Assembly (NCBI RefSeq): GCF_036588685.1
Contig: NC_086386.1
Coordinates: 43,710,001-43,774,000, forward strand
Direction: 5' to 3'
DNA: 64,000 bases
Source: Mytilus trossulus
Lineage: Eukaryota
The notes under the pieces were generated by a model. The model was given only the letters and a program-made list of their open reading frames with translations, ran no database searches and had not been told where the DNA came from. Positions 4,131-61,805 of this stretch are shown piece by piece; the stretch's first letter is position 1; each line of letters begins with the position of its first letter. The position numbers and the translations under genes are program-made.

Positions 4131-4198
4131 ATGTTGATGCATTTTGTACATGAATAAAGCCCTTGGGAGAACACAGACTAATCTATCAATGATATTAC

Positions 4199-4684
4199 CT
4201 GATATTGGTCTGCTTGTTCTTTGATTGGGACACATTTATGAATTGTGCCTGATGATTTGTCTGTCACACAGTCACATGACCTACATACAGCCCTGTTACA
4301 TGTCAGACAGTACAATGACATCGGCTCAGAATTGTGCAGAAGACAGGGACTGTCAGAAACTGAAGAATCAAGTTTCCATGCTGCATCATTAGATGCTAAT
4401 GGTTCGTCTTTTCTGTGAAGAGCAATGATATTCTCCAGAATTCTATTTACTGTTAAAGATTCAACACCACGATCTAATTCAATAGGTCGTTGACACAATG
4501 GACAATCCAGGTGATACTTCAGACGATGTCTTGGTAGCTGTCCATAAATATTTGGTCTACTATTCACAGAGAGTATCCCCTCTATACATTTCCTACAGAA
4601 ATTATGAGTACATGGCAACATTAGAGGTTTGTCAAAATATTCTAAACACACTCCACACATCAGTTCTGCTTCCATATCAGACAT
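4199..4684 (-). CDS. TRIM-family (RING + B-box) E3 ligase, first coding exon (162 aa)
   Basis: ATG at 4684; C3HC4 RING CGVC..LPCTHNFCRKC..CPLC and B-box CLLH..LYCLTC..VCRSC..H; donor CAG|GTAATA at 4199/4198. Further 3' exons were not identified and probably lie beyond the window start. Confidence 0.9.
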
Positions 4685-29105: not shown

Positions 29106-30230
29106 ACATGTAATTCTTCAATTAAATTGATGATGCTGCTAGTCTACTGGCAGTCCTTAAAGTTTCTACTATTCAGCACTGGAATGACTTCAATGATGCA
29201 TTGTTTATTTTTAAATTTTTCAGTTTATGAAAAAAAGTCAATTCACATGTTAATGCGAAAAATACACAGTTTCTTTTAATTTGCTTGATTGATTTTAGGC
29301 CAATACACATACAGTAGCACATGCAAGACTCAACTAAATATACCACAATGGGTGTCAATATGAAAAATGCCTTTCATATAAATTTTCTTTTAGGCTCTTG
29401 CATGTGCCAAATATATTTTTTTTGTTTGTTTGGTAAAGACCATATTTGGCCCTGATTATAAAGTTGAACGTTTCAATAAAACGAATAAGTAAGAATGTTA
29501 TAAAGAATCATTTTTTTCAAAAGCATTGATTTTGAGATTTCTAACAATCAGAAAGTAGAGATTTTTGATTTTTGCTAAATTTTGACAAAATCATCCAAAT
29601 AGCCAAAAAGAATATGGACTTGATAATACATATCAGCATTTATTTAACCACTAAGATGTCCTTTAATAACCAGATATAAATATAAATAGATTATAAACAA
29701 CCATATGGAATTAGATTTTTCTAGGCCTGTTTAAGTTTGAAGTCTTAGAAGTTCAAAGCATATAAATGTTGAAAATATGACGCACAACCCTATAATTTGA
29801 CCTTTGAACAAAATAGTAGTGCATATCAACTTTCTGTTCTGGGATAAAAGTTTTCTAGAAACTTCATAGTAAAAGTGGCACATATTTTGCCTATGGCAAA
29901 CTTTATAATTGTTTATATGTACAGAATTGCAACCTTAGATAGAGTTTGTGAGATGTACTGCTCAGACAATCTCAGAATAGACAGCCAGGATCAGTTCAGA
30001 TTTCAAGCTTGTTAACATAGATAGTTACTCTTACTTGTTAATCTTCTTCTATATAAAGTTTATCATTTTATATTACAATTCATAATGAAGATTTATGAGT
30101 TTAAGCTGGATAATAATATTGCTTAAAGTATAGATAATGGAGTTTGTAGGTGTCTTATAGGTGTTAATGGTTAACCACCCTTTAATCACACTATAATTAA
30201 TGGTATAATGATGTTCTTCTTTTATTACAG

Positions 30231-30287: not shown

Positions 30288-30951
30288 GTAAAGGCTAAAA
30301 ATACATGTAAGATCTAGAGTATATACTGAGGTCAAGGTGACCGATGGAAATCAGAGTTTATAGATAATTCTCCAAATATATATTGATTGAAATAATTCCA
30401 GAAAAATATGCATGGCTTTATGTATATGTTGTTAGTTGCAAAGCTGAAGATCTGTGACAAAAACTAATAAGGATATATATAGGTTAATACAATTATTTAC
30501 AGAGATTAGAATTATATCATGTGTAATTAAACAACAACCATCCATACCACATTTATGGTAAAAGATAGAAAACATCAAGATATAATAAACACCAACAATT
30601 ACATAAAAGGTTAATGAATTTGGTCAAGCAGATATATTCAAGTTGCTGTTTCAAAGTTTTGGGAGTTACATTTGAAAGATGAAAATACAAATACTCAATT
30701 TCTCACACGAGTGTACCTACACAATAAATGGTTAACAGTTTTTGGATAAATGGAGTATATGCTGTAGTATTTTTGCTTTCTAAAATAATTCAAAACAGTA
30801 ACAAAAATGTGAAAATAAAAAAAGGGACAAATAAACCACCAAATTAAAAAAAATCCATAAATTGTTATACCGTAGGCAGCACTGAACATCCCAAAAAGCA
30901 GCTGTCCTTTTATTTAAAAAGACAATGATTTTAACTTTTTTTTCTTCCCAG

Positions 30952-31191
30952 ATATTACAGCCAGTATCTGCTTTGATAGTGGTTGATGTGCAGAATGATT
31001 TTTTAGATGGTAGCCTTGCCCTTCGTAATTGTCCTGCTGGTCAAGATGGCCTTGGGGTCATTCCAGCCATTAATTCCGTCCTTGACACCGTCAACTTTGA
31101 CCTGGTTGTGTATACAAGAGACTGGCATCCATCAAATCATATATCATTTATAGACAATATAGATAAACGAAAACTACACTCAACAAATAAG
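30952..31191 (+). CDS. Naam: Nicotinamidase exon 4
   Basis: ALIVVDVQNDF (catalytic Asp) and TRDWHP (metal ligands); canonical AG/GT; 240 nt. Confidence 0.95.
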
Positions 31192-31371
31192 GTAAGAATT
31201 TGAAGAGAAGGCTAAAAAATGAATGAGTTGTTACTAGATGTTTTGGTGTGACTTGAAATGCAAAAATACAAAATACAAAAGCCTGTCGCTTGGTTTAAAG
31301 TTTGTTTCATCAAAAAAGGTCAAATTAACTTTACAATTGATATATACACATGAAATATAATGCATAATCTA

Positions 31372-33682: not shown

Positions 33683-33851
33683 AACACAGATGGTGGTATC
33701 ATAGTTAACAAAGGAACACATCCCAATGTGGATAGTTACTCAGCATTCTGGGACAACAATAGGCAATCCCAAACAGATCTGGTCAAAATATTGTCAAAAC
33801 ACAAAGTTACTGATGTGTATGTGTGTGGTGTAGCATATGATGTATGTGTAG
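33683..33851 (+). CDS. Naam: Nicotinamidase exon 6
   Basis: NKGTHPNVDSYSAF (catalytic Lys) and GVAYDVCV (nucleophile Cys); phase-1 donor G|GTAAG. Confidence 0.95.
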
Positions 33852-34441
33852 GTAAGTTGTTAAATGCATTGTTAGCTGGTGCAAATACATTTAAGTCATT
33901 CAAGATTCCAAATCAGTATTGTAAAAATTACAATATTCTCTGGGTTTTCATAAGATATTATTTTTTGTCAGACTACAAATTAATAAAGTCAAATTCAAGA
34001 AATAAAACATCCCCAGAATGAAAGAAATGTTTTTTCACTAAAAATATTACAACAAAAATCTATTGTAACTTATACTGAAATGATCATGACATACATATAC
34101 TTTTCTTTGAGGGTTGTTTGCAGTATGTAACTGTGTTAATCACTATACATATACATACCTGCAAACTGTCACTATTTGCATGGAATTTCCCCCATGGAGG
34201 TTCCCTAATTGAAATTTTGAGAGAGCAATTTTGTCCACAATTTTAAACAAAACATGACTTAGGCTTGTAAAAGTATGAAGAAGCCCAAAAAGCAACATTA
34301 AAATGTATTTGAAGGCCCCCTTGAAGGTTTTTCAGGACTATGGCAGCCATCTTGCACACAAAACCCCCATGGGCATTTTAAAAAGTTGGCAGGTATGCAT
34401 ATAAAATGTATATGTTAATAGCTTTATTTGATGTTTTACAG

Positions 34442-35854: not shown

Positions 35855-36286
35855 CATGAAAGTTGTACTTGTCCTGTAGTTTGTTTTTGACATGAAAGTT
35901 GTACTTGTCCTGTAGTTTGTTTTTGACATGAAAGTTGTACTTGTCCTGTAGTTTGTTTTTGACATGAAAGTTGTACTTGTCCTGTAGTTTATTTTTGACA
36001 TGAAAGTTGTACTTGTCCTGTAGTTTGTTTTTGACATGAAAGTTGTACTTGTCCTGTAGTTTGTTTTTGACATGAAAGTTGTACTTGTCCTGTAGTTTAT
36101 TTTTGACATGAAAGTTGTACTTGTCCTGTAGTTTATTTTTGACATGAAAGTTGTACTTGTCCTGTAGTTTGTTTTTGACATGAAAGTTGTACTTGTCCTG
36201 TAGTTTATTTTTGACATGAAAGTTGTACTTGTCCTGTAGTTTATTTTTTACATGAAAGTTGTACTTGTCCTGTAGTTTGTTTTTGA
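35855..36286. repeat. 36-bp minisatellite, 12 nearly identical copies
   Basis: Unit CATGAAAGTTGTACTTGTCCTGTAGTTTRTTTTTGA. Confidence 0.95.
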
Positions 36287-36326
36287 CCCATCTGTGTATT
36301 GTTAGGGTCCCCACCTAGTTGTGAGC

Positions 36327-36502
36327 NNNNNNNNNNNNNNNNNNNNNNNNNNNNNNNNNNNNNNNNNNNNNNNNNNNNNNNNNNNNNNNNNNNNNNNNNN
36401 NNNNNNNNNNNNNNNNNNNNNNNNNNNNNNNNNNNNNNNNNNNNNNNNNNNNNNNNNNNNNNNNNNNNNNNNNNNNNNNNNNNNNNNNNNNNNNNNNNNN
36501 NN
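36327..36502. other. Assembly gap (176 N)
   Basis: Run of N within the last nicotinamidase intron. Confidence 1.
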
Positions 36503-43781: not shown

Positions 43782-45051
43782 TTGCTTATGTAGTAAGTTT
43801 GCTTACGGTCATTTATAAACAGTCATTGTCTTTAAAAGAAAGGTTATTTAACAGTTTATAGAGGATGAAAAGAAGTAGATACACAATAATTAGCCTATTA
43901 TGCACTTATGTAAAGCTGTTTAAAATATAGTACTGTAGAATGGTTATGGTCTGATTTCATCATCATACAAAATGTAAATTACATACCGACTGATGTTTTA
44001 TGGCCAAAAGATGTGCCATATAGTATATATTTGAAATGTTAAATTGGAAGAAAAATGTGGAAACTTGAGAAAAGTTGGATTAATTATTCAAATATAATAC
44101 GATAATCTGTATTTTTCTCTCTCTGAGTAATAATATTTACAACTGTTTTCTTAAGCTACATACATGTATAATATAACATTGTTGGTACTTAATTTAAACA
44201 AAATTTGTATTGATGTTTCTCACAAATATGTGTATGTTTCACATATTATTTTATAAAAGTTTCATTTTTTGTTTTAAGGTTATACTAATAAATCAATCAT
44301 ATCTAACAACTGTTCTTTTTTAAAATCATTTCCACATACAAAGTAGAGGTTATGTCTATTTGACAATTTCATATGTTGCACATTACTTTCTGGTTGCCTA
44401 GATAACACCTTATTTCTGTGAATTACATTGGTTGGGGTAAAGATTGCAATCAAAATCTTATGTGGCTTACTTGATAATTACAAATTTTTCAAACTTTATC
44501 ATTATTTTTGAGGTATACAAAATATATATTATTGCTTATAACATTCTATACATTATCTCCAAGAACATTTACAGAATTTATCAATAAACTATATGCTCAG
44601 GAGTCGATTTCACACACACAAAAATTTACAACTAAGATTGATTGTGTGTGCTTGTGGTTTTTACCACAGGGTTGTGTATGCATCTAGTGCAGTGGTAGAA
44701 TCAATGCTCTATCACTGCCGCTGGCTAACTCACTTGTAGGTGGAAAGAAAGTCGAGTGTGTAAATCTTTCCTGCCAGTACAAAGCCTCTGCACTATCCAA
44801 GACTTCTACAGTGCCTCCTGGCGACAGCACACGGTAACTAGGTTTTATTATCCTAGGCGTCATCTGTAGAGGATCTCGGAGCAGCAAGGACCCACCGGCG
44901 TGTGGACACGCCCTAGCACTCATCATCCTTTCACCAGCTATGGGTCAAATAGTAATACTGCCTTGTGATTGGATTCTTGAGCTATGGGAGTAAATTCAGA
45001 CAGAAAATCCGGGTAGAGTCATTTCCTCCTCCCTCAGATACTATTTAATGG

Positions 45052-46210
45052 TCAATTTAGAGCACCACCGTCATGTTTTGTCATGAAAGGGTAACACACT
45101 TTTTGTAATTCTTTCAATTTGTCCTCATATTCTTATTTCTCTGCCAGAGGATTATTATCCAACCAATTTCGTGACTCTTCACAAGGCTGTTTAGCACTAA
45201 CTATGTAGTGTTTCAGTTGATTTCTTGCTGTGAAACGCTGTGTTTGCTTTTCATCTTCTTCTTTATATTTCTTTGCATTGGAAACCATTCGTTCAATTTC
45301 CTCTATAGCGAGCCCTACACTGTCACTTATCACAGTGATTTTTGTTAAATTCCCAGTGCTTTCTTTGTAAGCAAAACATCTTAAAGTCCATCAATATCAA
45401 CATCAAATTTTAAAACAATGTTAACTGCACCACGGGGGATGGAGGTAAATCATTAAGATAAAATGTTCTACCAAAATAAGGGTCTGTGGTCATAAATCTG
45501 CCTCCTTCAAACACTTTAATACTAGATAAAGGTTCATCGTTCGAAAATACCTTTGAAACCCTTGCAGGAATCATAGTATGTTGACCATAAATCCAGCTGC
45601 AGTTTCTAATTCAAGGGAAAAAGGAACTACGTCCATTAAAACTATGTCACTATGATAACCTGACAGTAAAGCTGCTTCCAAAGCTGCACCATAAGCAACA
45701 GCTTCATCTGGATGGACGGATGTATTCAGTAATTTCCCATCAAAATAATTATGTAGTATTTTTCGTATTTTTGGTATCCTTGTTGAACCTCAACAAGTAC
45801 AATCTCATTAATAGAACCTTTATCAAGTGTAGTATCTTTTAAAGCTGTTTCAACTGGTTCAAGTGAACGTATAAACAAATATTCACCTATTTTTTTTCAA
45901 ATTTTGATCTAGTTATTTTTGTGACGAAGTCTTTTCCCTCAAACAAAGAATAAATTTCCACACTTACCTCAGTGCTGCTGGACAATGCTAATTTTGCTTT
46001 CTCACAGGCTGATCTCAGTTTTCTGATTGCACGATTATTGCCAGAAATATCCTTTTTATACTTTCTCCAAAATTCATTTACAAAATAATGTGGAGCGAAC
46101 ATCGTACACTAAATCCTCATCTATTAAAAGAATTGAAACGTCGAATGCTCCTGCTCCCAAATCAAATATTAACACGTTTCTTTTGCCTGATAATTTCTTG
46201 TCAAGACCGT
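45052..46210 (-). pseudogene. hsp70: HSP70 pseudogene, lacks the N-terminal ~180 codons, many frameshifts and deletions
   Basis: Fragments [58 protein letters not shown]. Confidence 0.9.
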
Positions 46211-48371: not shown

Positions 48372-49790
48372 TTAGTTTAAACATATTTTATTTGCTGAAT
48401 TAAAGCAAAATGGATTAAACACAAGTAAATCATACCTATCATGAAGTCTTCTCCATAATACAATATTAATTTACAATAATAGTATATATAATGGACATGC
48501 ATATAATTGAAGACAAAGTTTTCAGATAGCCAGTTAAGGTTATGGAAAAAGGTTTTTCTACATAGTGTGTAATTTGGGCAAACGAAGAAGTAATGGTAGA
48601 CATCCTCAATATCGGATCCACAATGGCAAGAAGGATCATTTATAATAATGTTAGCTCTAATAGGTCATTGTTTAAGAATGAAGCGGAACATCGCAATTGC
48701 GTTAAGATAATATTTAAATTTCCTTGGGCAGTACAAATAAAACGTCACAGTTTCAATTTTACATAATAGACTATCGTTTTTTAATTCTTTCTTAAATTCA
48801 GAAATAGAGTCGACACTGCGAATTTTCGGATCAAGTTTATTCCATTCACGTATAGTAGAGGGAATAAACGATTCAGTAGTAAGGGAAAGTCTACAAAATG
48901 GAACAATAATATCATGACCATTTCACAACGGGTAGTTGGTTGTACTTTGTACACAAGGAGGTACAAGATTACATAGATATTCTGGTGCATGCTTTTGGTT
49001 AATGTTATAAAACATCTGTAATTTTCTTCTCCTTCTTCTTTCAAAAAGAGATTCACAGCCAACCTCGGAATATAAAGATTCAGTTTTTGTAAATATTGGT
49101 AGACCTGTTACTATTCTTGCGGCCTCTAATTGCAAATTCTAATTTATGTGAGTAGCCTATTCCACAATTATCCCACACTTCTGAGGCATATTCAGAAATG
49201 GGTCGAATAAAAACTAAGTATAGTTTTTCTAAGTTATTTCGAGATAATCGGTATTTAAGTTTACGTAAAACATTCTATGGGGGTGGGGGGTGGGGGGAGG
49301 TGGAGCTATGGGTTTTTTTTCTGTGCAAAACCTGGAAACCAACTTTTTTTTCCAAAAATAAACCATATAAACCATAGCCCCCCCCCTCCCCTGAAAATCA
49401 AATGGTTGCTGCCTTAGAAATTTTAGTTTATTTCTCACGGATCTTATGTTGAGACTACAAATGAATATAAAATTTTCTTGTGGTTGCGTTTCATTCACCG
49501 ACGGTGCGTTCGATTCATTACGAAAAATTGGGCCTGGATTTGTTTCAATTTTTCCGATAATAAAGAGAAAATGAAGTACGTACAGCAGAAAAATAATGTT
49601 TGATCTTGGATTTATTGTTTGTAAAACAGAGAGATTGAAGATGAGGAGACTTCAACGTAAGTTGATTATAAATATGTCTAGATAGGAAGCTACATGTATT
49701 TGTAAATTGGATGAAGGTCCACATTGGTTTTTTTTCTGTTATTAAATATACCTATAGCAGCCCTGTAATCCTGGACGCAGTTATCCATTA
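48372..49790 (-). mobile_element. Internally deleted CR1-group LINE (ORF2 N-terminus joined to C-terminus and 3' tail)
   Basis: MDNCVQDYRAAIGIFNN start (ATG 49788), GKIETNPGP, ICSLNIRSVRNK (APE start), then QLEAARIVTG..APEYL, CHCG..EDVYHYFFVCPNY zinc knuckle, AATAAAATATGTTTAAACTAAA tail. Confidence 0.85.
49257..49413. mobile_element. Small G/C-tract MITE remnant inside the LINE
   Basis: GGCAGCAACCATTTGATTTTCAGGGG end on the minus strand, opposing poly-G/poly-C tracts, TAA flanks. Confidence 0.5.
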
Positions 49791-51141
49791 CATGAATAAA
49801 CTGTTACAGGAATTAGGAGAGCATTACAAAACTGACACACATATCACTATCATCATAACCAAAAAATTACAAAAAGTAAGAACAAGAAAAGTTGAAAAAT
49901 GTAAAAGGCCAAAAAATAAGACTCGCAAATATGGAAGTCATGAAAAAAATGAAAATGAAAATGGGATATTGTAATACTGAAGAAGTTATGTATTACATTA
50001 GATAAAAAAAAATTGTGAATAAATAAAGAAAGAAAAAAAGTAAATGGAAATGTATTTAATAGTTACGTAGGAATCTATGGACGATAACTGTGTCCTTGGA
50101 CCAATTATTTGTAGATGTTGTAAATGACCCAACTTAATATCAGCCTCAAAGTTAATATGATATAAAGATTGTCATTGCTTTAGTCAATACAATTGGTTTG
50201 CCCCCTTTAAAGTGGAATATTTTTGCACTTTTTGACAAAAAACAAAATAAAAGATGAAAATGAATGATGAGCACTGACTTACTACTAGACAATAAGAAGT
50301 TTTGTTTCCTTCGCACTTTCAAATATTTGTCCCTTCTTTTCAGTCTATTCTAACTCCATTGCTTTATTATTTACTAGATATTATACTCGACTAACGTTCT
50401 TTTTTTAAAACACCCTTAAACTGGGTAGACCCAGCATTCCGACATCTTAATCAGCATGTTTGACTGAAAAGACCACAAGTTCTGTGATATGTATTATCAA
50501 CTTTTTAAATATTTTTTCAAACAAAGTAAAACAAAATAAAATATCATTGCAACAATAAATAATTATCAAAAATCATGATTCACAACAAAAGTAACAAAAA
50601 CAGTCTTAAGCTAAGCAAAAAAACGCTATAATCATTCGGTTAACATTATTATGGGTAATAAATGTGAAAACGTATTATGCAGACTATAGCTTGCATACAC
50701 ACATACAACTGATACAAAAAAAAACTTCCGTTAGTAATTCCTGGGTCTTCCTTGGGAACTAGATATTATACCTGGCCATTATGTGAAGGAATACATATGA
50801 ATTCAAAGCATTCAGTATCGAGGACATTTTAGAGAAGAATGTAAATTGATTCAGGTTAAGTGTGCTAACTTAAAGTTTACTACGAAATGTCTCGATGCTC
50901 TGATTTCCTATTACTTCAGAGAAAAAAGTGATCAGCCTTTCATGGAACACACGATAGTATTGACGAAAGCATAAACCGAAGAACGGTTTGACATTGATCA
51001 GTAAACCCCTGCTATAGAAGATATATCCCAAACTGACTTATTATAAACTTACAATGAACATTTAATTCAAAAAGTTCATAACCCAGTTTCCCCTCAGTTG
51101 ATACACGTGACATGCTACCACTATCATACAAAGCTCACGTT

Positions 51142-52938
51142 CTAATTGTTTTGAGGACCAGTGTGACCCTTTGTTGCGAAGGGGATGCACACTTTTTTCA
51201 ATTCTTCCATTTTGTCCTCATATTCTTCTTTCTCTGCAAACAAATTATTATCAAGCCAAATTAGTGACTCTTCACAAGCCTGTTTAACACTAAATATATA
51301 GTGTTCCAGTTTATTTCTTGCTGCAAGAGCCTGCTTTTGTTTATCATCTTCTTTTTTATACGTCTCAGCATCGGAAACCATTCGTTCAATTTCCTCTTGA
51401 CTGAGTCTTTCTGTGTTATTTGTGATTGTAATTTTCTTTGAATTTCTATTGCATTTGTCTATAGCTAAAACAGTAAAAAGTCCATTTGCATCAAAATCAA
51501 ATTCTACATCAATTGTAGTCACACCTCGGGGGGCCAGAGGTATACCATCCAGATCAAATTTTCCAAGACATTTATTGTCTTTTGCCTTGTCTCTGTCACC
51601 TTCAAAAACCTGAATCATCATTGCGGGTTGCTGGTCCGAATACGTCGTAAATGTCTGTGTTACACTTATAGGGATCCTTGTATTCTTTCCAATTAGTTTG
51701 GTCATTACACCACCTGCAGTTTCAATTCCCAGAGAGAAAGGAGCTACGTCGATTAAAAGTACATCTTTGATGGTGTCGCTGCGATCGCCTGACAGGATAG
51801 CAGCTTGGACGGCTGCACCGTAAGCAACAGCTTCATCCGGATTGACCGATTTATTAAGTTCTTTTCCATTCATAAATTCTGACAGCAAGTTCTGTATTTT
51901 TGGTATCCGTGTAGAACCTCCTACAAGTACAATTTCGTCAATACTACTTTTATCAAGCTTGGCCTCTTTTAGCGCCTTTTCTACAGGTATAAGTGTACCC
52001 CTGAACAAATCTGCACACAGTTCTTCAAATTGTGCTCTAGTTATCTTTGTGTAAAAGTTTATATCTCCATACAAAGAATCACACTCCACATTTGCCTCTG
52101 TACTGCTTGATAAAGTTTTCTTGGCTTTCTCACAAGCTGTTCTCAGTTTTCGTTTTGCACGATCATCGCGCGAAATGTCTTTTTTATATTTTCTTTTAAA
52201 TTCATTTAAAAAATGATTGACCAATCTGTTGTCAAAGTCTCTGCCTCCAAGTCGACTATCACCGACTGAAGAACGAACCTCGAACAATGAACTCTCATGT
52301 ATCGTAATAATTGAAACATCAAATCCTCCTCCTCCCAAATCAAACATTAGGACGAGTTGTTCGCCAGATAATGTTTTGTCAAGACCGTAAGCTAAAGCAG
52401 CAGCAATTGGTTCATTTATTATCCGTAGGACATTAAGTCCTGCAATAAAAGCAGCATCTTTTGTGGCTAGTCTTTGAGAAAAACTAAAGTATGCTGGCAC
52501 TGTGATGACGGCATCTGTAACTTTCATTCCGAGATAATCTTCAGCTGTTTCTTTCATCTTTACCAATATCATCGAACTTATTTCCTCCGAGGTAAATGTT
52601 TTTGTTTTGCCTTTGTGTTCAGCTTGTAGTTTTGGCTTGCCTTCACATGCGATGACTTTGAATGGCCAAAATTTCATATTTGACTGTACTTCCAAATTAC
52701 TAAATTTTCTGCCGATCAGTCTTTTGACATCAAAAATTGTATTTGAGGCATTCACTGCAATTTTGTTTTTAGCTGCATTACCAACCAGTCTTTCAGTATT
52801 CGTGAAAGCCACATAACTTGGAGTTGTTCTGTTCCCCTGGTCGTTGGCAATGATGTCTACTTTGCCATGCTGGAAAACACCAACACAAGAGTACGTTGTT
52901 CCTAGATCAATTCCGATAGCTTGACATTTTCCTGCCAT
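51142..52938 (-). CDS. hsp70: Heat shock protein 70, intronless CDS, atypical (598 aa, shortened lid, no EEVD)
   Basis: [34 protein letters not shown] signatures, DVLLIDV linker, SBD; open from ATG to TAG; likely 5'UTR intron acceptor tttacAG at ~52956. Confidence 0.97.
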
Positions 52939-53984
52939 ATTTGTCTACTATCGGTCTGTAAATGAAATATTCAATCTTATCAAAATCTGAAAAAATGTAC
53001 TGATATTGAAAATTGTCTTATCGTACATTAATCTCTCTATGGCCTGTGCGTATACGACCTTTACCATGAGCCTCTCGTTATAACTTCAGCAATCACAAAG
53101 CTAGAACGAGTAGAAAAACATGATAAATAAAAAGGTTATAACAATCGTGCACTGGAAGGTAGATTCTGCCAGGAAAAAAATAACACCAAATCATTTAATG
53201 GTTGTTATGATAAAGTTCAATTAAAAAATAAAAACAAATACATACAATATGGTAAAACAAATTTACATCCATCTACCAACTCGATTATTTATCAAGTGCT
53301 CCATGATTTTGTGTTGTGGTAAACTCTTAAAATGTGCTGTTCCAAGTACCAAGTCAGGAATATGGCAGTTGTTATCTTAAATTTCGTTTCTATGTGTGTT
53401 GCATTATCGCACTTTAGTTTTTCTATCGTTTCGTTGTTTTCCTCTTATACCCCGGATTTTATTTCTCTCAATCGATTTATGACTTTCGAACAGCGGTATA
53501 CTACTGTTGCCTTTATTTGACAAAACACAAGTTAATAAACAGCTAACGTTTTCGGAAACAATCAATGAATGACGATTATTTGCAATGGATTCTTAATCAA
53601 TGTAAAATGACGTGCATAAAGGACTAGTTTAGCATATATGCATGCATAAGTTCAATGATTTCCTTAACATTAAATTTACAAGAAACTCGTTTTATATGAC
53701 TTGATGCATTTTTTCTATTGATGGCAAGCGTGCATAATAGTTGAATGTTTTAATGAAATCTCTATAGTACGCACAACACTTTAACCTGATGACACGAAAA
53801 AAAAGTGTTTTTTTTAATAATATATTACTGATAAACATAGCAATATTCGTATCGTCAAAATAATTTGTTTCAAAATAGAGATAGGCCAATGATAAAGGCA
53901 ACATTATTTTTTTATAATTAGTTGAGTAAATAGACTAAAATAAGTTCTATCTTACTACATTGTTCTAAGGGCAAATGCAAAAGA

Positions 53985-54211
53985 AAAGTAATATATTTGG
54001 TTAGCTTGCTTGCTAGGTTAACCGTGAAGTCATTATTATGTAAGGTATACTACCCTCCTTTCGAAGTAGCCTAGTCCTACATACACATGATACAGATCAT
54101 GGAATTGGTTATCTGTTAGACTAGTCTACTCTTAAAGGAGGGTAGTAAACTTAATCTTATAATGACTTTACGGTTCGACTAGCAAGCAAGCTAACCAAAG
54201 ATATTACCTTT
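53985..54211. mobile_element. Foldback (almost entirely palindromic) MITE-like element
   Basis: TTTGGTTAGCTTGCTTGCTAG / CTAGCAAGCAAGCTAACCAAA and TACTACCCTCCTTT / AAAGGAGGGTAGTA arm pairs. Confidence 0.75.
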
Positions 54212-55340
54212 AGGTACACACTCAATGAAACAACAAGAATTAGAACATGTCAGAATTATAGCTCTAATAACTTACACATAGTGTGAATAAGCATCATACA
54301 CCAGTTGTTATAAAGCATAAAAATATGAAAATGAAATTTGACATACCAAATACTGAAATATTATTTTATAGCCGTTTCACTTCTTTCCTTTGCAGTTTTT
54401 TGAAGCCAAAACGAAAGTTCGCGTTATTTCCGGTGATAACATGTTTAAAATTAGAACATTGATTAAGAACGATAGTCTGTGTCATAAATCTTTCTGAAGT
54501 ATGATAAGATACAATGATATGGAAAAAATATGTTTGTTGTTAATTTGTGTCATTTTGGTATCTTGTGGAGAGTTGTCTCATTGGCAATCATACCACGTCT
54601 TTTTTTTTATATTTGGAATAATATCTCAAAACGATTGTTATCCGAATAATTATTTACATCGAACATTAACGGGTTACGCCTAGAATGTGTGTTTTACTTT
54701 CCACTGCTGAACTTTCTATAGAGTCTATCAGTTTAATTAGGCGTAAAAACCATTGATGAATAGTAAAAAGTTAGATATTCGCACCTACATTATTGCTTCT
54801 GTACTTGCGTTGAACATACTAGAACAGGCAGAGCAGTGCTTAATCACGCTTAATATCTTTCAGTTTAAAAACATACAAGTTTTCAATCGAAGCAAATTAT
54901 ACTGTTACTTAAAGAAACTTTTTCTAGAAAAAAAGAATCAAAAAGCTTATTTTAGAAAAATAATATCCCTCCCCTACAAGAAAATTATGAATTGTGTGCG
55001 TATTGATGGTTACAAAGGGGCAATATTCATAAACATCAAATCGGGAGCAAACAAATCAGATGCATCCATGTAAATTCTTAAACTTTAATCTATTTTCAAT
55101 CATGTTTTCAAGATTACAAAAGAACTTTGTGTCATTTTGTTTTTTTGTGGATAGTTGTCTCATTGGCAATCATACCACATCTTCTTTATATATTGACGCT
55201 GTGTTAAAAAAACAGGTCAAAATTTAACTTTCAACAGCAATCGAGAATATATAAAATCAGCACCAGTCTGTATTGTATTTATATTTTAGAGTAAATGTCC
55301 TTCGACTTAGAGTATAAAAACCGAACTAACTTATAATCAT

Positions 55341-56180
55341 ATAGCAGGGACAGGGGCAGCAATTATTAATGATCTTGGAACAACCTACTCGTGTGTTTAA
55401 GTTTTCAAGCATGGAAAAGTAGACATCATTGCGAACGACCAGGGAAACAGAACAACTCCAAGTCATGTGGCTTTCACCGACATTGAAAGACTAGTTGTTT
55501 AGTTAAAAACCAATTCACAATGAATGCTACAAATACAATTTTGATTGCCAGTAACTGGTCGGCAGCTATTTCAGTGAATACACAGTTTAGTCAGACATGA
55601 AGCACCGACCCTTCAAATAATTAAAAGTGGAGACAAGACATAAATTACCTGCTAAAAGCAAAGGAGATACACAAATATTTACCCCAGGAGAAATAAATTC
55701 AATGGTAAGAAAATTACAAACACCATCATAACAGTACCTGCATACTTTAATCACTCGCAAAGATTAACCTCACATTATCCTGATTATATTTCATAAATCA
55801 ACGTACTGCGAATAATAAACGAACCACCAGGTGCTGATTCAGCTTATGGTCTGGACAAGAAATGATCAGGCATGGATAGCATGTTTATATTTGATTTGGG
55901 AGAGAAACATTGGATTCAAGATATTCATTCGATTGACGATGGTTCATTGTTCGGAGTTCCCTTCCCCGACGGCTTTTATCACCTTTAAGGCGGAGACTTT
56001 GACATAAGAATTGTCAATCATTTTGCAATTGCAATTGAGAGAGAGAGAGCAGCAAAGCCATTTCTGGTAAAAAAAATCTCGTTCTTAGAATAATGAGAAA
56101 TGCTTGTAAGAAAAAACGAAAGCATTATCAAGCAGAACATAGGCAACCGTGTAATTCGACTCATTGTTTTAGTGAGAAAA
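55341..56180 (+). pseudogene. hsp70: Heavily degraded HSP70 pseudogene (N-terminal ~290 codons), opposite strand
   Basis: ATA(start lost)[50 protein letters not shown]; IITVPAYFNHSQR; NVLRIINEP; AYGLDK; DFDIRIVNHF; stops and frameshifts; not in the ORF track. Confidence 0.9.
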
Positions 56181-57778
56181 ATTTCTACAAAAAAAGGAAA
56201 CCAAAAATGAATAAATTGCAAAGTGTTGGACAATTCCTAAAGTTTCGTAGTATACAAATACTAGTATATAAAGAAAATGATTTATTAATTGTGCTTTTTA
56301 TGATTCATGAATATTCATAAATACACGATTTTAAAACGAACATTTCACAATGTCATTGTGTTAAGGCAGAGCTTATTATTTAGTTTTCTATGTTGTGTCA
56401 TGTGTACTATTTTTTGTCTGTTTGTCTTTTTCATTTTAATCCATGGCGTTGTCATTTTATTTTGATATACGAGTTTGACTGTCCCTCTGGTTTCTTTCGC
56501 CCCTCTTTTATGAGGTTTATAAAGTTTCATAAATGGATTGATTCATAATGACGATGTCACAAACTCGTGGTGTTTATAAGCACAGTTCGCAAAACTTAAT
56601 AAGTTCAAGAATCTAGAATGCACAACCACATGATAGCAGTGTAAAGTGGTGTTCATGAATTTAAATTTGTTATAACTTATACTCCATACCCCTTTCCCTT
56701 CTGGAGCACCTGAGATTAACCTCTTTTTTGATGGGGTTCGTGTTGCTTAGTTTTCAGTTTTTTTATGTTGTGGTTTGTGTTCTTTTGTTTGTTTGTCTTT
56801 TTTCTTTTTTGGCCATGGCGTTGTCAGTTTATTTTCGATCAATGAGTTTGAATATCCCTTATCCATATGGAATCTTCAAAACTCTTCGATCAACATTATT
56901 TTCAACAACCAGATTGGGACATAACGATCCATTTGGTAAAATGATTTTGTAGTAATCATTTAAGGTTTCGAAGATAAAGGTTTCGAAGAAGTAGTCTGCA
57001 CGAGAAAAAAAACCCAATGTTCATGTGGATAACTCTTACAAAGAAAGGTCTCGGTTAAGCGTGGTCAGTTTGAAAAGCATATAAACCATTCGAAATCATG
57101 TACCAAGATCTAGTCAACTTTGAATAACACATATACAGCGCAAAAAAACAAAAAAGTCGAATGAAGAAAACAAAACAAAACAAAACGAAATCAAAACGTC
57201 TTTCCACGGAAAAGATATTAGACTTAAATATCTCATGCAATCCCGCCATATTTAATTATTTTTTTACAAATATTCGATTAAAAGGAAGTACTAGAGTGTA
57301 CCTGAAAATGAATCACAGGGTATGATGATCAAATAAAGCTTGATAACAAATAAGGAAGCTATTACTATTATTATATATAAAGTTTATGAAAATGTCATAC
57401 GTGGACATTTTGTGTTAGATTACATTATAATTCGAATCAGTATTTGGTAACCAGAAGCTGTGATGAGAAGAATGTAAAAACGTTTCACACGTGTACATGC
57501 TCAAATAAATCATGCAAAACAATATCGGAAAAACTCTGATTACCTGGTGAGTAAAGGCTAATCTTTCATGGGAACAATATACGGACGAACAGAAACTTTT
57601 TTTATAGAATGGAAAGGTGTTAATTGGAGACCCTCTCCTTTATGAGTAGAAATATCGATATTTAACAAACTGGCCATTCGGAAATTTAGTCATATGTTTT
57701 CACATATGTTCCTGTGAAGAGCATTTACAGTCATTTTATCATCAGACCTATTTGTTATACCACTGTGATGTTTCAATA

Positions 57779-59521
57779 TTAAAAGTTGCACGCTTTTTGT
57801 ATTTTTTTCATTTCATTCTCGTATTCTTCTTTCTCCGCCAGAGAAGTATTATCAAGCCAATTGAGTGACTCTTCAAAAGCCTGTTTCACATGAAATGTAT
57901 AGTGTTCAAGATGATTTCTTGCTGTGAGACACTGCTTTCGTTTTTCATCTTCTTCTTTATATTTCGCAGCATCGGAAACCATTCGATCGATTTCCGCGTT
58001 ACTAAGCCTTCCTCTATCATTTGTTCTGGTTATTTTCGTTGAATTTCCAGTGCTTTGGTCTATAGCCGAAACATTCAAAAGTCATATACATCAATAGCAA
58101 ACTTCACTTCAATCTTGGGTTCACCGCGAGGATTTGGAGGTATACCAGTAAGATCGACTTTTCCAAGAAAATTATTGTCTTTTGTCATTGCCCTTTCACC
58201 TTCAAAAACAACAATACTGAATGAAGGTTGATTATCTGAATACGTTGAAAATAGCTTTGAAACCTTAACAGGGATATTTGTATTTCTTTGAATCACTTTG
58301 GTCATGACGCCACCAGGAGTTTCAATACCAACGGACTAAGGAGTTACGTCAAATAAAAGTATATCTTTTATGATGTCATTATGACTGCCTGGTAGTATAG
58401 CTGCTTGGACATCTGCACCACAAGCAACAGCTTCATCAGGATTGACAGATTTATTAAGTTCTTTCCCATTCATAAATTTAGATAGTATTGTCTGTATTTT
58501 TTGGTATCCTTGTAGAACCTCCTACAAGTACAATTTCGTCAATACTACGTTTATCAAGTTTAGCGTCTCTTAACACCTTTTTAACAGGTTCAAATGTTCC
58601 TCTGAACAAATCTGCACACAGTTCTACAAATCGTGTTCTTGTTATCTTTGAGTGAAAGTTTATATCCTCAAACAAAGAATCGCACAATGCAATTACCTCT
58701 GTACTGCTGGATAATGTTCTCTTGGCTTTCTCACAAGCTGTTCTCAGTTTTCTGATTGCAGAAATATCCAATTTTATACTTTCTCTTGAACTCATTTACA
58801 AAATGATTAACCATTCTGTTGTCAAAATCATAGCCTCCAAGGTGACTATTTCCGGCTGATGAGCGAACCTCTAACAATGACCATCAACAATTGTAACAAT
58901 TAACACGTCGAATGCTCCTCCTCCAAAATCAAATATTTAGACGTTTTCCTCGCCTGATAAATTCCTGTCAAGACTGTATGCTAAAGCAGCAGCTATTGAC
59001 TCGTTCATCATTTGCAGTACATTAAGTCCTGCAATAAAACATGCATCCTTTGTGGCTAGTCTTTGAGAATTATTAAAGTGTGCAGGTACTGTAATGACGG
59101 CATCTGTAACTTTCTGTCCGAGATAAGCTTCAGCGGTTTCTTTCATTCTTACCAATACCATTGAACTTATTTCCTCTGGGGAAAATGTCATTGTTTCTGC
59201 TTTGTATTCAGCTTGTATATTTGCCTTGCATCCTTTTTGGATTACTTTAAAGGGCCAATGTTTTATATTTGCCTGTATTGTTGAATCTTTAAAGTTTCTG
59301 GTAATAAATCTTTTGACATCGCAAATTGTATTTTCAGCATTCATAGCAATTTTATGTTTTGCTGCATCACCAACCAGTCTTTCAGTATCCGTGAAAGCCA
59401 CATAACTCGGAGTTCTTCTGTTTCCCTGGTCGTTGACAATTATTTCAACTTTTCCATGCTGGAAAACGCCAACACACGTTGTTCCTAAATCAATTCCAAT
59501 TGCTGGACTTTTTACTGACAT
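57779..59521 (-). pseudogene. hsp70: Full-length HSP70 pseudogene
   Basis: Collinear fragments from [15 protein letters not shown] to WLDNTSLAEKEEYE; nonsense codons at 58937 and ~58336, frameshifts near 58880, 58765, 58500 and 58077; YS deleted from GTTYSC. Confidence 0.93.
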
Positions 59522-61805
59522 ATCAAGTTATGTCACTTTTGTTTACTATAAATAATCTGAAAATAAAAAATTAAAAGTGGTAATGGCCGAAATTCAGCTA
59601 CCACGCCTTTAATTTTGTATATCAAACGTTCGCAAAACACAATGCCAAACCAGCTAAACTTTAATATGAAATTTCAAAAATAATTAAGCGCAATACTTAT
59701 AAATCTTAAACTCTTTGGGGGATAATATTGATTTGAAATAAATAATCTGAAAATCAGCAACTCTATCTAAAAAGGCTTGAGAGGGTCCCAACATGACTAG
59801 TGTAAAACAATTCAAACAGACGTCTTATTTATGTAAAAAAAAACCACAAGAAACGAGAAACACTTTTAAACCATACCAACAAATGAAAACTACTGAACAA
59901 CTGTTTCTTACTTCGGACATTTTCAAACAAATGCAGCGGGTTTAAAGGTTGTAATAGTGACCGACCTGCAACCTTAACTGAAACATTAGGAAACATTACA
60001 ACAAAGAAAATAGTAAGACAAACTATTACATATCAATTCAAATGACTTAACTTGACCAAAACGAAACACTGCTGTACCCATCATATTTTAACTTTAGTTT
60101 GTTATGTCTGTTTCGTTCATGCATCGTTGTAAATATAATGGAATTTAATGCGACTGTCAAAGACGTAAGAGGTTAAGCGCTATTAAAATGGTTCAATCCG
60201 CATTTTTTTTACATCTAAAAATGCCTGTACAAAGTCAGGAATATGACAGTTGTCGTCCATTCGTTTGATGTGTTTTGTCATTTGATTTTGACATTTGATT
60301 AGGGACTTGACAATTGAATTTTCCTCGGAGCTCAGTTTTTTTGTGATTTTACTATTTATTTACAAAGGCAATTACACATACACTGAACAAAACAAATTGC
60401 TCTATGATAAAATATGTAAAGCCATGTCAAAAGACAACTTCAACATGGGACAAAATGGTGTTGAATATGGTGTACGAAGATGTTTATAGTACGATAATAG
60501 AAGTGAATATTTATAAAACTTAATACTTTTTTAAGAACTTATTTTGTACATATTACAAATAATGAGACGAGATGTAACACAAAATAAGTAAACATTTATT
60601 AACAAAACTGCATTACAAGTTGTGTCAGCCGGTCAAATTCACACGAACGTACGATTCGAGAGTACTCACAGTTACTGGAAGCAAGTTAAAAGCCAAAAAC
60701 AATTAATATTAAAATAAAGTCAAGCATCAGAGACTTCAATCCACCTAAAACGCACCCCAGGGATTTAGTGTTAAGCGAAATGGTCAGTCAAATAAGACAT
60801 AAATTGTGCCATTCAAAAATATAGTTTGAACTCAACCTACAGATTTGTTTTCTTTTTAAGTCTTTTTTCCGATTGCCTATACGACCTTCAGAAGTAAACA
60901 TTGACCAAACTGTGTTTCTTTGTCTTTTAAGTACAACCTTATAGTTACAGCAGTCTATTCATACTGGCTGGAAGTAAATCTGACTTGATTGTCTTGCTAG
61001 GGAATTATAATTTATTATTTCTAACAAATGGGTGACCTGGGTTTTACAGACAAGATTTCTTTTGGCCATATTATACCTCATTTGTGTTCTTTAATCATGT
61101 ACGAGGACAATTAATACCTATACCCCATACCATTCACGTAGCAGAAATCAAAAGACTCCCACCTCCAACTGATATTGCCTACTTTTGCCCCTTTTTTGAA
61201 CGGTATCAAACTCTATAAAGCCCATTAAAGTTGCCATATTGCCATAAACGCAAATCTGAGAAGAGTTCATGGACCATGAATTGCAGGATTAATTATCCTA
61301 CTCTCAAGACACTTCAGCTGGGACAGTTATCAAAATGTATGGAGGGTCATACGGGCAATCAAATAACAGTGGTCGCCATCACGACGATTTGGGTTAAATG
61401 AATGGATAATTGCTCTCTGGCAGAGAAATGAACTTATGGTCAAAATAGAAGACCTGCAGAAAGTAGGTATACGACCGTCATGACAAAACTTCATTACGAT
61501 GCCAAAATAGACCATTAAATAGTACAGGGGAATTAAGCACCAACAATGGAATAAGTTGATTAAAACTTAACCGTAAATAAATAAAATGCACTTTGTAGAT
61601 GCATGACTACTTATTGTGTGCTATAATTACTGTTATTTACCTTGTTGTAAGCAGCTGATGTTGATTGATTAATGTTATCTTAAAGTTTTGAATATCTGTT
61701 TAAGTAATTTAACTTGTTACAAAAATGATAATGTTCATATATGTCATACATGAAAACATTAAATTACTGGTAGAGTCATCTCAAAGGCTAAGATGTTATT
61801 TTGCA

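Follow-up and report, generated by a model that had tools for sequence, protein, structure and literature searches.

What becomes of an Hsp70 that has lost the threonine of its catalytic loop, a piece of its lid and its EEVD tail, and is its gene still at work or slowly dying? The question is raised by a 64,000-nucleotide stretch of the Mytilus trossulus genome (contig NC_086386.1, positions 43,710,001 to 43,774,000; hereafter the window), which contains four Hsp70 copies, one of them intact (copy A) and three broken (copies B, C and D; Table 1). The reading that we favour, tentatively and by analogy with mutants made in other Hsp70s, is that copy A is an intact, Mytilus-specific offshoot of the HSP70B2 genes that would encode an ATP-binding, hydrolysis-poor and non-cycling Hsp70.

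The frame of copy A contains no stops and no frameshifts, the Pfam family PF00012 (HSP70) covers its residues 7-583 with 745 bits, and the protein runs from a nucleotide-binding domain (NBD) through a linker to a substrate-binding domain (SBD). This architecture, together with a predicted model and a fold search that match Hsp70 structures, places it in the Hsp70 superfamily. It matches HSPA1/Hsc70 structures best, together with HSP70B2/HSP68 proteins of molluscs (67-79%); judged by best matches, with these subfamilies standing outside the tree described below, nothing points to descent from Hsp110, Ssz1/HSPA14, HSPA12 or HSPA13.

A first departure from canonical foldases lies in the DLGGGTFD loop, where copy A carries glycine at Hsc70 T204, a position that we take to be DnaK T199 and BiP T229, in agreement with the numbering of the passages cited below. 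The preliminary description of this DNA, made from its letters, had read glycine here and alanine in the two other minus-strand copies, and the codons bear this out: GGA in copy A, and GCA in both copy B (58913-58915) and copy C (46146-46148). Among 296 proteins, 272 bear the loop, and the residue is threonine in 262 of these, glycine or alanine in nine and proline in one. All nine belong to the copy A lineage and the proline case is an unrelated fragment, and the loss of T204 is not a chance pattern.

The serine-phenylalanine pair at Hsc70 positions 151-152 occurs in 6 of 264 proteins, every one a copy A orthologue. D152 was also considered as a strictly invariant residue, which was ruled out by asparagine in 37 of the 264, mostly canonical Hsp70s of oysters; only the phenylalanine and histidine states are unusual. 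The arginine pair H227R and E231R was found in 5 of 281 proteins, again only copy A orthologues, and no open-access paper naming H227, E231 and D232 together was found that would speak to its effect. The preliminary description had HLGGEDF altered across the copies, which holds for copy A through these two arginines; the HLGGYDF of window copy B can be read only across a frameshift, the intact B gene of M. galloprovincialis has HLGGEDF, and in copy C the segment is deleted. L399F is a further change in copy A.

The helical lid of copy A is incomplete. It is 19 residues shorter than in the Mytilus parent and 21 shorter than in human HSPA1A (residues 552-572), a loss that, by the helix assignment of the literature and the predicted model, removes the last part of helix B, the loop joining B to C and the first half of helix C. 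The estimate of 19-20 residues made earlier agrees with the comparison to the parent, and its junction at 51276/51277 is an acceptable placement. This junction is identical in copies A, B and C, where KQACEES, KQAFEES and KQPCEES can all be read. At its C-terminus copy A ends in GPQNN instead of an EEVD-type motif, and no remnant of EEVD or of the tail was found within 1.5 kb downstream of its stop.

The changes stand beside a largely preserved core. Copy A keeps the catalytic and nucleotide residues of a canonical foldase (D10, T13, K71, E175, D199, E268, K271, S275 and R342) and the further pocket residues T14, G201-203, G339, S340 and D366, so that the retention of D10, T13, K71, E175 and the linker reported earlier is true of this copy. 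Also unchanged are the proline switch and docking residues (P147, Y149, R155, R171, D395 and N483), the linker, the lid latch R469/E543, R72 and W580. E218 is kept as well; R171, E218 and the linker are the J-protein-facing parts of an Hsp70. Residue 174 of the window's copy A is the canonical isoleucine (position 52418) and is threonine in the M. edulis and M. galloprovincialis proteins and in contigs of four sequencing runs; beside the N174-E175 motif, it is either a polymorphism or a reversion. The NBDs of the lineage are basic (isoelectric point 8.8-9.1, with copy A at 8.8), compared with 6.1-6.6 in canonical Mytilus NBDs.

What these changes would do can be gauged from mutants described in published work. 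BiP T229G, the identical substitution, binds ATP without hydrolysing it and keeps the low-affinity state (PMC2171714; PMC5655141), and Hsp72 T204A has a lower kcat, a higher Km and no DnaJB1 stimulation (PMC9438496). In DnaK, D148A fails to sense the client, T199A keeps allostery and T173 contacts linker residue D393 (PMC12406271); the double mutant T199A/D148A mirrors T204G with the D152 change in copy A. Disruption of the lid bundle generally leaves an unfolded lid that blocks the substrate pocket (PMC7294093). These engineered proteins, DnaK T199A among them, are altered at the position of the copy A change in a full-length laboratory background, whereas in copy A it is natural, fixed across species and joined by lid, tail and pocket changes.

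Given that all checked nucleotide-pocket residues other than T204 are kept, copy A is predicted to bind ATP. It probably also docks its two domains. By the precedent of BiP T229G and Hsp72 T204A it would hydrolyse ATP poorly and respond weakly to J-proteins, and by that of DnaK D148A it would have lost client sensing. The V438M change and the shortened lid would make client trapping weak or blocked, and the missing EEVD would leave no hand-over to co-chaperones with tetratricopeptide repeats (TPR). The resting state would then be open, low-affinity and ATP-bound. The slow ATPase proposed in the preliminary description can thus be upheld by analogy, as a J-unresponsive one. Its holdase-like protein, if tight binding is meant, is unlikely: an Hsp70 that hydrolyses ATP poorly remains in its low-affinity state, a disrupted lid tends to obstruct the pocket, and copy A has an altered pocket valine. 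The likeliest job of copy A, if it has any, may be that of a minor heat-induced accessory that makes brief contact with clients or co-chaperones without cycling, resembling Hsp110 or Ssz1 in its working more than a foldase or a holdase that grips clients in the ADP state.

Structure prediction had been proposed for the lid. AlphaFold2 predicts that copy A keeps the fold of an Hsp70, with a lid that is shortened and made of three helices (helix B at 514-550, a short helix at 556-564 and a helix at 570-584; mean predicted local distance difference test score 75.7). A model of the SBD by itself (predicted template modelling score 0.43) has the same helices and a lid that is not closed, and only its beta-sandwich can be overlaid on solved SBDs. 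Since no canonical control was folded, the full-length model's docked-like pose (best template modelling score 0.74-0.78 to ATP-state structures) was not used as evidence of state.

The phylogeny places copy A among ordinary mussel genes. In a maximum likelihood tree of 33 rows, a single clade (97/96) unites A, B and C amid canonical Mytilus HSP70B2 proteins, as expected of the derived lineage proposed earlier, with M. californianus branching as sister to the remaining A proteins (97/98); copies C and D have long branches and an uncertain placement. Copy A has the tree position of HSP70B2, the metazoan cytosolic Lineage A, and also its signature, an extra serine in the ATPase domain (bioRxiv 10.1101/2020.09.21.307264), seen as a single-residue insertion at 216-217 relative to the human and bovine proteins. 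In Mytilus assemblies the canonical HSP70B2 genes have accession numbers neighbouring those of the lineage genes, which suggests one tandem cluster. Copy A is a tandem duplicate descended from the canonical HSP70B2 genes of Mytilus.

Copy A has intact orthologues in M. galloprovincialis (two assemblies) and in M. edulis (one assembly). Its cluster at 90% has four members, each of 598 aa and 92% identical (copy A itself, M. galloprovincialis XP_076070090 and OPL21180, and M. edulis XP_071127803), and the frame is open in these 4 full-length records. The M. edulis and M. galloprovincialis proteins differ from each other at 1-2 of 585 sites. In M. californianus, the model XP_052076579 (682 aa) shares glycine at T204, serine-phenylalanine at 151-152 and the deleted lid, and is without EEVD. 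Its layout is unusual: an A-type NBD and SBD-beta are followed by a full canonical-type lid and then by a second lid with the 19-residue deletion, which could reflect either a recombination restoring a full lid to gene A or a chimeric gene model. Neither from M. coruscus nor from outside Mytilus was any A-type protein found among the 120 best matches or in a search with the lid region, which returned known lineage members and canonical proteins only. Shorter A-like fragments above 74% were absent from the best 120 of 7,991 proteins, and two pattern scans of metagenome contigs gave no match.

A B-type gene is intact in M. galloprovincialis (XP_076070091), and a Logan contig contains one too, with the lid deletion of the window copies. 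Its open frame of 586-588 aa joins T204A, E175A, T37I, Y149H, A406P and V438F, several of which are classic inactivating changes, and differs from the dead window copy B at 20.5% of residues, compared with 7% between copy A orthologues. The clade and the shared junction indicate that the loss of T204 and the lid deletion predate the duplications, as the preliminary description had supposed for all the changes that the copies share, and also the split from M. californianus. The same cannot be said of the EEVD loss, for which each copy has a lesion of its own: A stops after GPQNN, B ends through a one-base deletion that the intact M. galloprovincialis B also has, and in C the canonical tail runs on in register for 8 codons after the stop, up to the start of a repeat.

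Selection on copy A was assessed by counting the ratio of nonsynonymous to synonymous rates (dN/dS) per branch on majority-rule triplets of the window copies. Branch A gave 0.41 (p 6e-5) in the A, B, C triplet, where 317 of 400 codons could be used, and 0.32 (p 5e-4) in the A, B, D triplet, where 189 of 239 could, with 0.58-0.59 for B, 0.94 for C and 0.79 for D; within copy A the NBD stands at 0.17-0.29. Replacements also avoid conserved positions. At 311 of 585 aligned sites that are at least 97% invariant across 130 canonical proteins, copy A carries 13 of its 41 differences from M. galloprovincialis, 34 of 114 from the parent and 35 of 105 from M. californianus (30-33%), where a neutral simulation puts 53-54%. 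For 105-114 replacements the simulation expects 6.7-7.5 stops, and none of 300 runs was stop-free. No copy A sequence alters any of the 18 invariant lid sites. A fully neutral SBD was considered and dropped as overstated, SBD changes still avoiding invariant sites. Between species the copy A protein diverges by 7.0% and canonical proteins by 1.2%. Copy A is thus under real but much relaxed purifying constraint and evolves about six times faster than its canonical relatives. Two of the signs by which the preliminary description would have been given up, a dN/dS of about 1 and disruption in other species, are absent from copy A, which is intact in M. edulis and M. galloprovincialis; disabling lesions mark window copies B, C and D as pseudogenes, with the higher ratios of 0.94 and 0.79 in C and D. 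The preliminary description is to be corrected on this point, its two other minus-strand copies, B and C, being pseudogenes here.

Evidence that the gene is transcribed comes from DNase-treated gill RNA-seq of M. edulis in a heat experiment (PMC8774603). In its supplement, the unigene Cluster-103175.0 (1207 nt) has as best protein match the A orthologue OPL21180, with a score of 1509 against a Swiss-Prot score of 992, and canonical proteins were included in the database used to annotate it. In the comparison '33 C v control' it rises about 9-fold (1.31 vs 0.15, log2 fold change 3.14, adjusted p 0.039). Sliding windows that reach this score and beat the canonical protein number 41 of 41 in range for A, 0/9 for B, and 0/12 and 0/18 for two canonical genes. 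Only A yields the ratio of scores seen in the supplement, 0.66 (A 0.58-0.76; others 0.82-1.05), with a vertebrate Hsp70 substituted for the Swiss-Prot entry. It is likely that the A orthologue is transcribed and heat-responsive at a low level in M. edulis gill, a partial answer to the earlier proposal that heat expression be looked at. A second unigene that lists OPL21180, Cluster-53306.25449, was rejected as evidence because its score of 281 is a tie between A and canonical proteins at the N-terminus.

Contigs from four sequencing runs aligned to 50400-61500 also cover copy A, one run tiling 51051-53100 gap-free with 7 contigs; two longer contigs of other runs contain gap letters. They were set aside as evidence of expression, RNA and DNA origin not being told apart. 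No splice joint is listed for them in that interval, and two read unspliced through the putative acceptor of the copy A 5' untranslated region (5'-UTR). Among the 40 of 918 differences that are listed, 16 fall in the copy A frame, 7 of them synonymous, from which no dN/dS was taken; of 82 indels, 12 are listed. No RNA record from public sequencing runs is listed for the window.

Several results weigh against copy A as a maintained non-cycling protein. T177I, E231R and V438M are not in M. californianus and so are not required features of the lineage, and no A-type protein of M. coruscus was among the 120 best matches. The linker and SBD of copy A have a dN/dS of 0.78-1.05, on low synonymous counts. 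Canonical orthologues place 0-1 of 17-22 interspecies changes on invariant sites, so that the constraint on copy A is far weaker, and the pseudogene control is skewed too (47 of 117, or 40%, between window B and M. galloprovincialis B), which means that the skew is in part not specific to a living gene. For the window and M. galloprovincialis pair, 2.6 stops are expected and 7% of runs are stop-free, which is not significant, and in the NBD of this pair invariant sites are not avoided (11/231 vs 9/157, p 0.82). Cluster-103175.0 was identified as A by scores and not by sequence, appears in one comparison only, and is about 20-35 times rarer than canonical unigenes of the same block (28-46). In the mutant literature, BAG1 restores the activity of Hsp72 T204A (PMC9438496), and Hsc70 T204V is reported to hydrolyse normally with ATP binding about 100-fold weaker (PMC2196005), so the effect of losing T204 in cytosolic Hsp70s is not uniform.

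Much of this would also be expected if copy A were a redundant duplicate in slow decay, the nearest rival and a real possibility, though we hold it the less probable. Copy A would then have no job of its own and be transcribed at a low level with its heat-induced neighbours, selection would remove only changes that cause misfolding or interference, and it would be the last survivor of a dying sub-clade. Three of the four window copies are dead; B is intact in M. galloprovincialis yet with E175A and T37I added, and dead in the window; every step of the cycle is hit and losses accumulate along the tree. The terminal branch of the window's copy A is 0.072, compared with 0.026 for the edulis/galloprovincialis form, and the gene models CAG2254420 (M. 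edulis) and VDI84256 (M. galloprovincialis) skip or fuse parts of A and may hide lesions. The near-neutral SBD and the low transcript level fit this explanation as well. It is opposed by a frame that has remained open on several branches, each with over 100 replacements, by the low dN/dS of the NBD, by the retained nucleotide pocket and 18 of 18 invariant lid sites, and by the near identity of the M. edulis and M. galloprovincialis proteins. The earlier contrast with simple decay can therefore be kept as far as simple neutral decay is concerned, given the intact orthologues, the dN/dS of 0.32-0.41 and the likely transcript; beyond that it is unsettled, with three of four copies dead and constraint weak.

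A stronger form of the favoured reading is that selection, within one genus, turned an inducible Hsp70 into a natural ATP-locked, non-cycling cofactor like Hsp110 or Ssz1, which we consider unlikely. The order of steps in living species would be T204A and the lid deletion, then T204G and D152F, then E231R and V438M, and the changes coincide with mutations that biochemists make to freeze Hsp70 in its ATP state.

Still less likely, in our judgement, copy A is a weakened Hsp70 that cycles, with slower or exchange-factor-dependent hydrolysis, altered client specificity, and the TPR branch alone lost. The retained K71, E175, D199, R171, linker and latch R469/E543 would suit such a protein, as would the Hsc70 T204V and BAG1 results, the asparagine tolerated at D152 in 37 other proteins, and the stress-induced HSPaB2 genes of Tegillarca granosa that lack EEVD (PMC10939072). 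Glycine, however, removes the whole side chain and is the exact substitution that leaves BiP hydrolysis-dead, Hsp72 T204A gets no stimulation from DnaJB1, D152 has become a bulky phenylalanine, and pocket and lid are changed too. Least probable of all is a decoy or brake that in its ATP state sequesters J-proteins or exchange factors, or pairs with canonical Hsp70, to damp the heat-shock response: the retained R171, E218 and linker, the likely induction at the higher temperature only and the dominant interference of Hsc70 ATPase-site mutants including T204V in cells (PMC2196005) would favour it, but the transcript is far rarer than the canonical ones and BiP T229G left the wild-type protein undisturbed in its gating of the translocon (PMC2171714).

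Against known systems, the non-cycling copy A that we favour stands closest to canonical Mytilus HSP70B2 (XP_071127801, XP_063415269 and CAH04106), its direct parent group in the tree at 75-79% identity. The two share an intronless coding sequence, the extra ATPase serine and the same chromosome-scale contigs, and copy A differs by T204G, N151S/D152F, T177I, the remodelled 222-231 segment, V438M, the 19-residue lid deletion and the missing tail with EEVD. Plant truncated Hsp70T proteins of the T1 lineage are likewise near full-length cytosolic Hsp70s in tandem clusters, without EEVD and with variable lid deletions (PMC10687569); their origin in plants is independent, and the passages of that paper say nothing of a missing T204. 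In the bivalve Tegillarca granosa only 5 of 11 HSPaB2 copies have EEVD and several are stress-induced (PMC10939072), a likeness to copy A in the missing EEVD; nothing points to orthology with its lineage, and the passages of that paper contain no analysis of active site or lid. EEVD-less Hsp70s are also described in Daphnia (PMC11098801).

Hsp110 and Ssz1/HSPA14 have no EEVD-dependent cycle, and the predicted copy A might work like them, with nucleotide bound and little hydrolysed. Ssz1 binds nucleotide and has no ATPase activity (PMC10687569). These proteins are ancient, highly diverged and have dedicated partners, whereas copy A is young and about 70% identical to HSPA1A/Hsc70.

Tandem Hsp70s without EEVD and with lid deletions in plants, and EEVD-less copies in Tegillarca and Daphnia, are already known; what appears new is the natural combination of T204G, D152F, lid deletion and pocket change, fixed across species in a young metazoan lineage. 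A literature largely lacking subscription journals yielded no paper that describes the lineage or names six of its accessions, and the passages of PMC11268181, PMC12838483 and PMC12692333 do not mention it. The emergence of the ancient atypical, non-cycling Hsp70s cannot be traced, and a young lineage with intermediates in M. californianus and the edulis complex, and with dead sisters as controls, would make such a transition testable with few recombinant proteins. Counts of 'expanded HSP70B2' and HSP70 stress markers in mussels also include copies that are probably unable to fold clients. If slow decay is all there is, the locus is a case of ordinary birth-and-death within a tandem array.

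Table 1 Hsp70 copies of the window and the altered sites of copy A (positions in the window; residues of copy A unless stated otherwise).
Feature	Position	Strand	Basis
Copy A, atypical HSP70B2-derived Hsp70, 598 aa, intronless intact open reading frame (ORF)	51142..52938	-	ORF reading, Pfam, orthologues
Gly205 (codon GGA) in place of Hsc70 T204	52324..52326	-	Alignment to human HSPA1A and bovine Hsc70
Ser152-Phe153 replacing Hsc70 N151-D152 (DnaK D148, client-to-ATPase signal)	52480..52485	-	Alignment, residue table
Ile178 replacing Hsc70 T177 (DnaK T173, linker contact)	52405..52407	-	Residue table; Thr in M. californianus model
Remodelled segment 224-233: T222S, A223V, T226S, H227R, E231R (Hsc70 numbers)	52240..52269	-	Alignment
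Met440 at the substrate-pocket position Val438 (copy B has Phe, the M. californianus model Val)	51619..51621	-	Residue table
Lid-deletion junction Q553-A554-C555	51274..51282	-	Alignment; junction placeable either side of Ala554
Stop codon cutting off G-rich tail and EEVD; position same in M. edulis and M. galloprovincialis	51142..51144	-	Orthologue comparison
Copy B, pseudogene: 2 in-frame stops, 4 frameshifting indels	57779..59521	-	
Copy C, 5'-truncated pseudogene, T204A codon, lid deletion, canonical-tail remnant	about 45030..46208	-	
Copy D, N-terminal Hsp70 fragment, inverted and heavily decayed, with 5 stops and 5 frameshifts	55341..56193	+	

The broken copies and their surroundings show further detail. 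Copy C has lost its first 184 codons and contains stops and 6 frameshifting indels; a repeat at 45039-45161 begins where its canonical-tail remnant stops, and an inverted second copy of this repeat lies at 61403-61524. Copy D is absent from the preliminary description. Pyrimidine-rich acceptor-like sites at 52987-52995 and 59557-59570, which closely precede the A and B start codons, suggest a 5'-UTR intron as far as such motifs can. A perfect three-unit palindrome at 56304-56321, 3.4 kb upstream of copy A, is heat-shock-element-like; one more perfect site is at 29853.

Elsewhere in the window, an exon with a RING finger and B-box at 4178-4684 (-) is typical of TRIM-type ubiquitin ligases, and two exons at 30886-31203 and 33683-34021 (+) have weak isochorismatase-domain matches and resemble a nicotinamidase. 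A 36-bp repeat in 12 units at 35855-36502, with long minus-strand open frames, adjoins a 176-base assembly gap (36327-36502). Between copies A and C, short frames at 48377-49651 (-) without a Pfam match look to us like the remains of a retroelement lacking long terminal repeats (non-LTR).

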